A stretch of 57,783 bases of DNA, filler included, from Circinaria calcarea (Eukaryota), in NCBI GenBank assembly GCA_051942165.1. It is 5 parts of 5 records of this genome, joined end to end, with 100 filler letters (N's around TTAATTAATTAA, not from the genome) between each part and the next. Parts side by side here need not be neighbours in the genome. Positions count along the whole stretch, not along the records: positions 11,598 to 23,078 come from JAVECS010000679.1; 4 more parts are not named here. One strand, given 5' to 3'. Under the pieces are notes generated by a model. That model saw only the letters and a program-made list of their open reading frames with translations. It ran no database searches and was not told the DNA's origin. Positions 18,637-21,641 of this stretch are shown here, in pieces; positions within the stretch are counted from its first letter, which is position 1; each line of letters opens with the position of its first letter. The position numbers and the translations under genes are program-made.

Positions 18637-20945
18637 TTAAAGTCCTGGTACTGGTATAAATGCAACCGCAGGAAGATTCAACTGACGGATTGTCAACAAC
18701 GGACATGGGTCGGGATTCCTAATCAACTTACTTTAGCGTCTTCAAACGTTTTGGCCGCCTTTGCCATATCCCATCCGCTCTGTTCCAAACACAAGCCCGA
18801 GTAGTCCAATGTCATTCTAGTCACCTTGCTCAAGTCCAAGGCCAGCATTTCCTTCAGGACCTGATCGTCCGATTTTCCTGGCCCTTTAACTCCCCACCCC
18901 ACTGGTACCACGCTGTTGAGAGTTTCTGATGGCTGGCATAACACAGTGCTAGAATTTGACACTGGGTCGGGCTTCCACGCTTCATGGCTACCATAAGCTC
19001 TTAAAACAAGAACATCGCTGATTACTCGGACACCGCCAAAGCCGCCGCCTGGACCTAGGACAAATATTCGATCGAAACTCCGTGTGCATAGGGTATTGCC
19101 AGTCGAAACATCCATCTCTCCAAATTCACCGTGTACTACAATCAGTAGACCACCAACTCCCCCTGCAGATTGGCCTGATGGGTCAGGTAGGCCGGGAAGA
19201 GAGTGGCACTCAATGCACCATTTCTGTGGCTCGGCGGAGTAATCTGGATGACGTGTGCTGGGTAGCGTGAGCCATAAGTCAGTAATATTTTTGGTACCCT
19301 TGTAGACTCTGGCCATCCTTGTTGTTAAATGGGTGACCCTTGTTAAGTTTCGACTGTGTTTGATGTACGATTCCCAGGTCAGATTCTTGACACCAACGGT
19401 TTCCGGCGCTCGGGGTGCTGACGTGTTGATACTGAGTGAGAAGGATGATTGAGCGTCGTAATAGCTTCTGGCAAGAGTGCTACGATCGGTGTCGTAGCCG
19501 AAGAAGAATCCTTTGAGGAAGCCTTCACCGACGGATCCTTCATCGCGAAAGCTTGCTCCAAGAATTGGCAAGGGTAATTGATCTCTTGATCCTTCTCGCG
19601 CCTCTTCATCAGATCTAACTTGGGTAGCGTTTAGTATGCGCAAGGTGGGATACCAACGGAGGACGTCATTTTGGTATGTGGGAACAGCTGTCTCGAGTGG
19701 GTTGTTGGAAAGAATAAGATGATCGAGATTTCGGAACTTCCAGCGCCAAGCGTCAATCGCTTCCAGGTCCTTTAGCTGGTTAGAAGACAGATCAAGATTC
19801 TTGAGCTCCGGAAAGGTCTGCGAGAGAGTCGTAACGGTGGAGATATTTGGGAGATTATTGTTGGCCAAAGTAACGCTCACAACAGCTTCGCGCTTCTGCT
19901 CTCGAGTGGTGAATATCAAGTCGCAGACTTTCATGAGAGCCGGGAAAAACTTGGCCTGCCTCTCTTTGGTCTCAAACATGCCTGTGTTGGCAAATTCTGG
20001 GTCGGTCCCAAGATTAGACAGATCCAGAAGCTTCAACTCCGTATTGTAACGGTGACTGAGCATGGCTGTCATCTTATCCTTTAGCTGTCCAGTACCTTCG
20101 GACTGTTCCTCTTCCGACAACTTCTGCTCTGGATTCTTAGAAGTAGCACGGGCATTCGTCTCCCTAGCGCTCATCTCCACGCTCAGTTTGACTCCAGCAA
20201 ACATATAACCATTGAGCCTGATGACGCTGGGGGTATCTTTTGGTTTCACAGATACGATCAAGACCTCATCCTCAATTCGTGACTACACAACGTTAGCAAG
20301 GCATATAAACCTTGAAGTTGCAAGTCACCCATATACGAAAGCGGCAACCTCTGAAAACCTCGGTCGTCGTTCTGATATATTGGCTTGAAACGAGAGCGGA
20401 CCAATGAGGGCGAAGTTGCTGAGACGCTTCTGACCGACGGACTGTGACTTCAAACATACCTTTTTAATTGTGACAAGCGGTTTGCCAGCATAGGTTGCCT
20501 TTGTTGCCAGGAATTCAAGGAGCGTCTGAACACCTCCGTCATCGTGGTGTGATACTTTGCTACCTTTCCAGCCGGATACTGCAATGTAATCAAATCCAGG
20601 TCGACCTTCTCGCACGACAGCATCTCCGGAGCTTAATCCCTGTTTTATGGCTCTTTCTAAGAAGGTAGGATCCAAGGTTTTCCTGCCCCTTTTTGTGGAG
20701 TCGTTGGCCCGTCCACGATTGTCGTTATTTCTAACACCTTGCCCACGTTCACGACCACCTCGACCTCTACCAACCCCTCTACCAACCCCTCTACCACCTC
20801 CTCCGGCAGCGTCCATTTCCAAGTCGCCATCCCGATCGGTTCGAGGATGTCCCCCACCTGGCTTCTGAATTCTACCGCGTGGGTCACGATGATACCGTGG
20901 GCCGCGTCGCTCCTGAGGACCTCGCGGTTGGTGGGTAGTGTGCAT
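18637..20945 (-). CDS. MEX67: mRNA export receptor Mex67/NXF1 (RG-rich N-terminus, RBD, LRR, NTF2-like, TAP-C), 3 exons
   Basis: RYNTELKLLDLSNL, LRR motifs LKNLDLSSNQL and LILSNNPL, NTF2 segment YYDAQSSFSLS...VHGEF...RSFDRIFVL, TAP-C TRMTLDYSGLCLEQSGW...LPAVAF. Introns at 20283-20459 and 18682-18731. Confidence 0.93.
20283..20459 (-). other. MEX67 intron 1: structured RNA hairpin, candidate cis-regulatory element
   Basis: GTATGT...GCTAAC...TAG, 177 nt. Consistently nested complementary segments span about 20318-20453 (see findings). Confidence 0.6.
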
Positions 20946-21641
20946 CGCTGAGATGAGGTGCGGCGTTTGATGTGATAATCTAGGTTGCTATTGGAAGACG
21001 CTTTGGATGACGCCAATAAGCTCACTGGCTTCAAGTGGTGTGTTGGGGACCTCGATGTTGGAAAAAGTCAGACGGCTAGGCAGGCCTTCCGGGTGCCTTC
21101 GGTGTTGAATGAAGATGCTGTAGCATGCAGTAAAGCGATAAAAGGGTTGGTGGGAAACTGACGATGCAGAGCGCTTTATCTCGAAAAACGGGCTCTACGG
21201 AGGAGGTCGGTGGTATTTGGATGGAACAAAGGAAGAGCGTTGCGTTGTTACCTGATTCAGTCGGTTTCCCAATTGCATCTGTGATGCGGTCCTACTGCGG
21301 CTAAGGCGTATATTTACTCCGACGCTAAACCTTAGTCTAGAAAGCGTACAGGGCTTAGCAGCTTCACGCCGGATTTCCAAACGTGTCTTAAAAGGTCAGT
21401 TGGGAATAGAAAGGACAGGACAGAAATGTTCTGATCGTGAAGTAATTCAACCTCCCAAGTTACGGTGTCTCAGGATGGGTTTTCTACACTCATTTTAGTT
21501 ATCGTCTTACTGCGTATTCCACACCTTTTCGAGTATCAATTAACTGAAACTGGGAGCTTCCATCGATCTCTCGCCTCTATCTGGCCAGATCGCTACCGTC
21601 CGAAGTTCAGAATTGGTCGTTGAGCCTAGAGTGACGGCAGA

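Follow-up and report, generated by a model that had tools for sequence, protein, structure and literature searches.

In Saccharomyces cerevisiae, intronic elements of the export-factor gene YRA1 reportedly act through Mex67p, and a structural element of a plant DEAD-box helicase is said to be the subject of a bioRxiv preprint from January 2026. In vertebrates, intron 10 of NXF1 is retained and contains a constitutive transport element (CTE), that is, an export-receptor gene is controlled via its own intron (PMC4338338). In that report BLAST locates the CTE in mammals and zebrafish and in none of birds, reptiles, C. elegans, or Drosophila, and fungi are unmentioned. The rpl30, rps, and rpl7 motifs belong to ribosomal-protein and RNA-binding-protein genes that are autoregulated through structures in their own introns (PMC5640933). 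For the zipper stems of yeast introns, what counts is position (a linker sum of 42–85 nucleotides (nt)) and stability, and sequence does not enter the definition (PMC12350175). Here we analyze intron 1 of the MEX67/NXF1 gene of Circinaria calcarea, which lies inside the RRM-coding part of the gene, in a stretch of 57,783 nucleotides, filler included, from assembly GCA_051942165.1; this whole stretch is referred to as the window, and positions are counted along it. The hairpin into which the intron folds is unremarkable on its own; the intron is a deeply conserved structured element that shows signs of retention.

Like YRA1, MEX67 is an export-factor gene with an unusually long intron, modular cis elements, and unspliced RNA as the putative regulated product, and Mex67p is said to be involved in the YRA1 case; YRA1 encodes an export adaptor rather than the receptor and has no homologous sequence, and its pre-mRNA is reportedly subject to export and Edc3-dependent decay. 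The resemblance to NXF1/TAP intron 10 is that of a retained intron in the receptor's own gene, with a hairpin-type RNA and a sequence conservation unusual for introns; in the NXF1 CTE the conservation surrounds the protein-binding loop and includes a 5′-splice-site-like sequence (PMC4338338), and in the fungal intron the motif CAAGGU is invariant. However, the fungal element is found in an intron of the RRM-coding part, gives no model match, and has an unconserved open reading frame (ORF), and its binding by the receptor is hypothetical, by analogy with NXF1. As in autoregulation of the rpl30/rps/rpl7 type, a conserved intronic structure occurs in the gene of an RNA-handling protein, where such a structure is thought to sense the protein and switch splicing; none of those cases concerns MEX67, and no motif is shared with them. 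As for zipper stems, the predicted consensus stem of the fungal intron (GGUCAC/GUGACU) has a linker sum of ~53 nt (24 + 29), within the 42–85-nt range; unlike in zipper stems, the part extruded at its apex keeps its sequence from class to class, and another conserved hairpin adjoins the branch point. The window's own 7-bp stem, with linkers of ~37 nt, is below the yeast zipper limit.

Our literature search found no description of a mex67 intron element or of mex67 autoregulation. The element is not among the 15 fungal motifs of Li and Breaker as given outside their supplement (PMC5640933); the portion of Gao et al. on 17 fungal RNAs that we compared, again outside the supplement, contains no mention of mex67, mexA, or export (PMC8216456); and neither does the main text of the Aspergillus screen of McGuire and Galagan, the supplement of which might list the locus (PMC2467506). 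With Rfam release 15, the region 19800-21000 gave no match in intron 1 at E≤10 (one chance hit is located outside the intron), and the whole window gave no hits at the gathering score.

Conservation of intron 1 in filamentous ascomycetes

Metagenome contigs scanned with a 28-protein alignment yielded 49 loci, 38 of which include the start of exon 2; the proteins encoded by these loci are 41–58% identical to the Mex67 of the window. At 34 of the 38, an intron of 165–206 nt occupies the identical phase-0 site, and the same sequence blocks recur in 33 of these 34 introns (21 distinct sequences; the exception is L038). The shared blocks are the 5′ splice-site flank; GGUCAC; a core, GGUCCGCUCUCGUUU-loop-CAGAACGACGACCGAG; GGGUGAC; and CAAGGU-loop-GCCUUGCUAACGUU. 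In the window, the intron and its parts are as follows.

20283..20459, minus strand: intron 1, 177 nt, phase 0; spliced contigs skip exactly this stretch; 182 bits with covariance model R1
20454..20459, minus strand: 5′ splice site GUAUGU; GUA is invariant and the next three letters nearly so in a 22-row alignment
20444..20450, minus strand: AAGUCAC, 5′ arm of the window's own closing stem (intron nt 10–16); paired in the minimum free energy (MFE) structure; lineage-specific
20430..20435, minus strand: GGUCAG (intron nt 25–30), equivalent to GGUCAC, the conserved 5′ arm in the zipper-type closing stem of the consensus
20357..20409, minus strand: apical domain (intron nt 51–103) with CCUC/GAGG, GGUC/GACC, UCGUUU/GAACGA, and a 15-nt loop beginning CAAGCCAA
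20322..20330, minus strand: conserved GGGUGACUU, 3′ arm of the closing stem; the ORF of the retained form stops within it, at an in-frame UGA (20325-20327)
20297..20314, minus strand: mini-hairpin CAAGGU-loop-GCCUUG (intron nt 146–163), adjoining the branch point (within two bases 5′ of CUAAC)
20292..20296, minus strand: branch-point consensus CUAAC, predicted from sequence; CURAC in the alignment; 12 nt before the 3′ end
20287..20321, minus strand: 3′ domain, a GCAAC/GUUGU helix around the mini-hairpin and branch point, present in the MFE structure
20285-20283, minus strand: 3′ splice site UAG, from sequence and spliced joints

The loci were placed by the identity of their proteins to named records.

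L001, L002, L007: Lecanoromycetes, 72–85% protein identity
L016, L027, L030, L035, L042: Eurotiales (Rasamsonia, Paecilomyces, Aspergillus, Penicillium), 70–78%
L012, L041: Leotiomycetes (Bisporella), L012 at 64–65% and L041 by its near-identical intron
L015: identical to a Trichophyton protein (100%); core of the element degenerate
L010, L019, L023, L032: unplaced within Pezizomycotina

By sequence comparison, filamentous ascomycetes from three or more classes share the element, its position and length as well as its letters being conserved; a preliminary description of this intron had named conservation in orthologous introns as a check. In 15 carrier lineages the intron is 62–81% identical to that of the window; the flanking exon-2 starts (first 180 nt) are 55–67% identical in 14 of the 15 (28% in L015), and the exon-1 ends (last 120 nt) 58–67%. 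Three element-less introns are 31–44% identical, near a noisy shuffle baseline (36 ± 16). On these alignments intron 1 is better conserved than the adjoining exons. When the gene was compared with 19 loci by permissive blastn, the picture was the same: intron 1 was covered in 12–13, most of exon 1 in 0–1, and intron 2 in 0–3.

The strongest conserved block is the apical domain, and the conservation of this extruded tip includes its unpaired letters (the bulges and the start of the loop); the loop start CAAGCCAA is common to the Lecanoromycete-type and Leotiomycete-type loci. In the mini-hairpin the stem letters are near-invariant and the loop is variable. A coding explanation (an alternative exon) was rejected: the arms are invariant at all codon positions, stops occur early, and 9 of 22 intron lengths are not multiples of three. 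In-frame stops occur at codon 3–8 in 8 of the 22 carrier introns (window plus 21), that is, at codon 3 (L005, L014), 6 (L012, L041, L030), or 8 (L032, L037); the retained ORF is unconserved, so a functional or conserved short protein is unlikely.

The intron also varies among the loci. Where the element is lost, the intron is missing (L028, L029), short (L026, 112 nt), long (L031, 350 nt), or AT-rich (L038, 188 nt). The Trichophyton-identical locus (L015, 3795-4000) has a 206-nt intron in which the branch-point mini-hairpin is kept and the core is degenerate (model E = 0.011); from its sequence, the element appears to be decaying in Onygenales. In a further, unplaced group (L023, 3830-4000; L032, 3835-4000; L037, 52-216), the core hairpin is near-unchanged and the 3′ part is different: the CAAGGU/GCCUUG stem is absent, and another hairpin (e.g., GGCUC/GAGCC) is located upstream of another branch site (UACUAAU or UACUGAC), so a hairpin near the branch point recurs with a different sequence.

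The sequence UUCAAG followed by C or G occurs twice in the intron of the window, at nt 70–76 (20384-20390, the apical loop start) and nt 144–150 (20310-20316, the mini-hairpin's 5′ arm); several relatives have it twice as well, and it might be a repeated recognition word.

Splicing and retention of intron 1

The gene model within which the RNA evidence was read is given here.

18637-20945, minus strand: MEX67/NXF1 gene, 693 codons, three exons (20945-20460, 20282-18732, 18681-18637)
20460..20945, minus strand: exon 1 (162 codons), coding for an Arg/Gly-rich N-terminus plus the leading half of the RRM; ATG at 20945
18732..20282, minus strand: exon 2 (517 codons), coding for the rest of the RRM and, from Pfam, the LRR and NTF2-like domains
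18637..18681, minus strand: exon 3, 14 codons plus TAA; joint from spliced contigs
18682..18731, minus strand: intron 2, 50 nt, an ordinary short intron that serves as internal control

The host is the gene for the Mex67/NXF1 export receptor, with NXF-type LRR and NTF2-like domains. For exon 2, Pfam gives NXF_NTF2 (2.5e-44), LRR_NXF1-5 (3.1e-11), and the second half of RRM_9 (0.0019, below the Pfam curated cut-off); the query ended at 18800, that is, short of the TAP-C part, and TAP_C (PF03943) is present in the precomputed Pfam lists of the homologues, which are named MEX67/mexA. The last 77 residues encoded by exon 1 retrieve the exon 1 of relatives in tblastn searches. The named proteins nearest to the Mex67 of the window (~60% identity) are from lichen-forming Lecanoromycetes; one further protein is 86% identical.

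A sequence search identified parts of the gene in four ribosomal-RNA-depleted biocrust metatranscriptome runs (X1–X4), all from one study. Contigs were placed at ≥85% identity; the actual identity to the window is 90–98%, that is, they are from close relatives or other strains. Intron 1 is spliced in contigs from two of the four runs (X2, depth 7.1; X3, depth 3.2), which skip 177 nt (GT..AG) and join 20282 to 20460 on the minus strand; the positions proposed earlier for GUAUGU, CUAAC, and UAG are correct. Intron 1 is retained in contigs from three of the four: X1 record 4 (950 nt, 20230-21000, depth 6.0) contains the whole intron with exon on both sides, and X2 record 8 (20325-20478, depth 4.2, 3 differences in 154 nt) and X4 record 19 (20402-20772, depth 4.5) both cross the 5′ splice site. 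The depth of the intron-1-keeping contigs (4.2–6.0) is thus about that of the spliced contigs (3.2–7.1). Intron 2 is solely spliced in all three runs that cover it (X1 and X2 skip 50 nt; X3 skips 51, with one extra letter), and none of the contigs of these runs has an unspliced intron 2. Because intron 2 is found only spliced, carry-over of DNA is disfavored, and we take the contigs as a hint of real retention of intron 1.

The general idea of the preliminary description, a regulated retained intron in an export-receptor gene, is supported by an intron that is conserved across classes and found unspliced beside spliced contigs while its neighbor is found spliced only. The reading frame it gave for the retained form is also right: translation continues for 44 codons to the UGA at 20325-20327, for a 206-residue ORF (20325..20945). 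Its estimate that intron 1 is about three times the usual length is upheld against intron 2, the sole other intron measured; a motif scan of the window was uninformative, with too many false hits. An alternative 3′ splice site at a conserved CAG in the core was rejected, as no such joint occurs in the contigs and its use would shift the frame.

The contigs of the relatives in X1, X2, and X3 lose their match exactly at the stop codon, with loose ends at 18637. The 3′ untranslated region is already unalignable at 90–98% coding identity, so the conservation of intron 1 stands out further.

Fold and covariation

The preliminary description read intron 1 as a single rod-like hairpin. Its eight helices and 15-nt loop are all complementary where they had been placed, and both the MFE and the centroid structure from RNAfold match the rod (−47.9 kcal/mol), the marginal UUG/CAA pairs excepted. 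The expectation of a fold energy better than chance failed: z is −1.20, and 22 of 200 dinucleotide shuffles are as stable (shuffle mean −43.06, sd 4.02; a second shuffle set gave z = −1.31). In shape, the intron is less ordinary: it has 41 pairs in one unbranched stem-loop vs a shuffle mean of 22.1, and 14 of the 200 shuffles reach 41.

Among the orthologs the rod survives in part: the apical hairpin and the branch-point mini-hairpin are in the consensus, but the middle of the rod varies by lineage and the outermost stem is lineage-private. Thus, the outer stem AAGUCAC/GUGACUU is paired in 55–56% of ortholog cells, whereas relatives pair GGUCAC with the same GUGAC(U) in 73–79% of cells; the version of the GGUCAC/GUGACU stem in the window has five of the six pairs. 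The apical six pairs are paired in 84–91% of cells, and the lower core can pair in either of two registers that rule each other out (GGUC/GACC, or UC/GA + CG/CG), each ~80% compatible. The mini-hairpin is paired in 100% of cells in alignment A4 and in 86.5% in alignment A2. The GCAAC/GUUGU helix is paired in 75–83%, with two-sided changes in three of its five pairs (MAFFT) to all five (covariance-model-fitted), and is poorly retained in distant lineages.

Nine introns and a consensus of 38 pairs, set by hand, went into a covariance model. Run on the window plus 37 loci (292,415 bases), it gave 24 hits at E≤1, all at intron 1 and on the gene strand, and no hit elsewhere in those bases; the hits in L035 (E = 0.08) and L009 (E = 0.73) are weak, and those in L023, L032, and L037 are core-only. 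When two core motifs were sought in genome and viral contigs, the 116 + 72 stretches that matched were all prokaryotic or viral and the mini-hairpin was present in none of the 188, so these were discarded as chance matches.

In the model-fitted alignment, 84.3% of cells are paired vs 77.1% in shuffles (0/500 as good), 23 of the 38 pairs are changed on both sides vs 13.2 (0/500), and the covariation score is 0.202 vs 0.128 (0/500); with slid partners, 24–46% of cells are paired and 8–13 pairs are changed. In the MAFFT alignment, which is not structure-fitted, 75.4% of cells are paired vs 72.5% (0/500) and the covariation score is 0.185 vs 0.160 (5/500), with 30–42% and 11–19 pairs for slid partners. 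RNAalifold on 13 model-aligned lineages (mean identity 0.55) kept solely the apical hairpin and the mini-hairpin, at −7.88 vs −0.23 ± 0.54 for column shuffles (0/100 as good). On 22 MAFFT-aligned rows it gave no consensus structure, because the variable flanks are unalignable by sequence, and on nine MAFFT rows it gave a partly different structure. Without an alignment, the pairing of the two flanks compared with shuffles has z < 0 in 16 of 22 introns, with p≤0.02 in six (window, L001, L010, L030, L032, L037) and p≤0.07 in ten. The consensus structure has frequent G-U pairs, which fits the sense strand.

RNAalifold on nine introns also favors a local 5′ helix between nt 22–26 and nt 56–60 (20434-20438/20400-20404; columns 24–28/61–65 of alignment A3). 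This helix is GCCGG/CCGGU in most relatives, is preserved by a two-sided change in L005, and competes with the closing stem and the lower core stem; as modeled, it could represent a second conformation and hence a switch. No complement of the apical loop (a kissing partner) was found elsewhere in the gene.

Proposed function and rival explanations

We favor, with modest confidence, the explanation that intron 1 of MEX67 is an ancient cis-acting structured RNA that sets the efficiency with which the intron is removed; the folded element probably controls the amount of export receptor in the cell. The element has four parts: a closing stem ~25 nt from the 5′ splice site, the apical hairpin, the mini-hairpin at the branch point, and the helix that encloses the branch point. 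With the closing stem formed, ~110 nt would be extruded and an effective intron of ~65 nt, the usual fungal size, would be left. A trans-acting factor may recognize one or both of the apical and branch-point hairpins; conservation is highest in the extruded tip, unpaired letters included, which thus resembles a protein or RNA recognition site. Mex67-NxtA, the export receptor itself, would be the leading candidate, with a co-factor of splicing or export as the alternative; the receptor is attractive because the element is in its own gene, because vertebrate NXF1 does something similar, and because the intronic elements of YRA1 are said to act via Mex67p. In the lineage of the window the branch point is enclosed with the mini-hairpin by GCAAC/GUUGU, so its recognition can depend on the folding state, and binding of the factor would shift the balance toward retention. 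With its early in-frame stop, the retained RNA would encode a 206-residue product that lacks the LRR, NTF2-like, and TAP-C domains and is no working receptor; this form is probably degraded, which would amount to negative feedback on the level of Mex67.

Several results weigh against this explanation. The fold energy is no better than chance, both in the window (z = −1.2) and in 25 orthologous introns (mean z −0.56, median −0.10), and the ratio of consensus to single-sequence energy is 0.17 (−7.88 vs a mean of −45.9). The structure, although compatible throughout, is supported mostly by sequence conservation, and the compensatory support is modest and alignment-dependent: in the MAFFT alignment 14 pairs are changed on both sides vs 12.9 in shuffles (190/500), and flank pairing gives no signal in L005/L011/L014, L007/L008, L015, and L023. 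Some lineages do without the element (L026, L028/L029, L031, L038), and in L015 it is degenerate. The RNA evidence consists of assembled contigs, which give no ratios, from a single study and from relatives 90–98% identical, and nascent pre-mRNA or DNA carry-over may be the source of the unspliced contigs. The candidate factor and the feedback are proposals made by analogy with the known systems.

One explanation is a subset of the one we favor: as a fungal counterpart of the CTE, the apical hairpin would be bound by the RRM-LRR part of Mex67-NxtA, and the retained mRNA would be exported, to yield the short N-terminal protein or to be decayed in the cytoplasm. This is possible but doubtful. 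The element is within an NXF1-family gene, intron-retaining RNA is present, and the bulges and loop start of the hairpin are conserved as for a protein site; in addition, the predicted partner of A. nidulans MexA is the metazoan-type p15/NxtA, with no Mtr2 homologue identified in that species, where mexA is non-essential (PMC3192866), and vertebrate NXF1 works in this way with its intron 10 (PMC4338338). However, receptor binding is here hypothetical, by analogy, Rfam gives no match, the position of the intron is unlike that in vertebrates (so the likeness would be convergence at best), and a conserved short protein is unlikely with an unconserved ORF that stops at codon 3–8 in 8 of 22 introns. 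More specifically, and as a suggestion that we make only tentatively, filamentous ascomycetes may have independently evolved a transport-element-like RNA in which Mex67-NxtA binds the apical hairpin (the CAAGCCAA loop start and bulged arms) and blocks the branch point in the adjacent hairpin, a feedback that would have been kept since the Pezizomycotina classes split. It is improbable that the structure is a constitutive splicing aid and nothing else. The consensus stem has linkers of ~24 + 29 nt, within the 42–85-nt yeast zipper window (PMC12350175), the residual intron of ~65 nt has normal fungal size, and the flanks stay paired despite their differing sequences, all as such an aid would have it; but it leaves unexplained both the near letter-for-letter conservation of the extruded part across classes, bulges and loop start included, and the persistence of the insert in most lineages, and it sits poorly with unspliced contigs as deep as the spliced ones when intron 2 is found spliced only.

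Fungal small nucleolar RNAs (snoRNAs) are often intronic, and the intron could host an independent small RNA that is processed out of it once spliced, such as a stable RNA of a new snoRNA-like, Dicer-dependent, or other kind. The size of the rod suits nuclease processing, and its sequence conservation is above that of the exons; yet no Rfam family matches at E≤10 on either strand, nor at the gathering score in 16 orthologous loci, the model finds one copy per locus, and the conservation reaches the branch-point region and the 5′ splice-site flank, which are parts of an intron and not of a released RNA, so we consider this explanation distinctly improbable. Box C/D snoRNAs carry RUGAUGA and CUGA motifs and a terminal stem, and H/ACA snoRNAs are two hairpins with H and ACA boxes; by eye, the intron has no RUGAUGA, no conserved CUGA, and no ACA three nt from a 3′ end, and no snoRNA model matches, so both classes were rejected. 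Least probable is a mobile hairpin intron of the introner kind or an element that works in the DNA, for instance as an internal promoter or enhancer. The intron is at the same orthologous position across classes, the conserved blocks are far longer than factor sites, and the frequent G-U pairs would turn into A-C mismatches if the other strand were read; as for introner-like copies, the model gives a single hit for the 57.8-kb window and one per locus across the 292 kb scanned, and further copies may lie in the rest of the genome.

Between classes of filamentous fungi, introns do not as a rule align; in this one, ~100 bases are better preserved than the coding sequence on either side, in a gene whose proteins are 41–58% identical, which argues for a function both old and important. 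The product of the host gene is the main mRNA export receptor, and vertebrates control the level of their own receptor with another retained intron; were it a feedback sensor, the element would be a case of convergent evolution of self-control in the export machinery, and it would provide the first specific RNA ligand for fungal Mex67 or its partner. If Mex67-NxtA binds the hairpin, fungal Mex67 would gain its first defined RNA target of high affinity, and the motif might mark other transcripts for selective export. The element is accessible in Aspergillus/Penicillium, close relatives of which carry it. With it, fungi, for which few conserved structured RNAs are known, gain a well-defined candidate family.

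Two minor observations concern the rest of the gene and its surroundings. Exon 1 contains a tandem 12-nt repeat (GVGR units; window 20745-20810, minus strand) inside the Arg/Gly-rich N-terminus; the relatives in X1 and X2 are without 12 nt at 20764, so the repeat number differs among close relatives. The sole Rfam match in the 16 orthologous loci is the box C/D snoRNA Afu_298, located elsewhere in those loci; it has no match in the window at the gathering score, and in four loci of different lineages it is downstream of mex67 on the opposite strand.

L027 9240-9322, minus strand: Afu_298 snoRNA, from Rfam
L010 4812-4896, minus strand: Afu_298 snoRNA, from Rfam
L019 4705-4778, minus strand: Afu_298 snoRNA, from Rfam
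L025 6118-6191, minus strand: Afu_298 snoRNA, from Rfam

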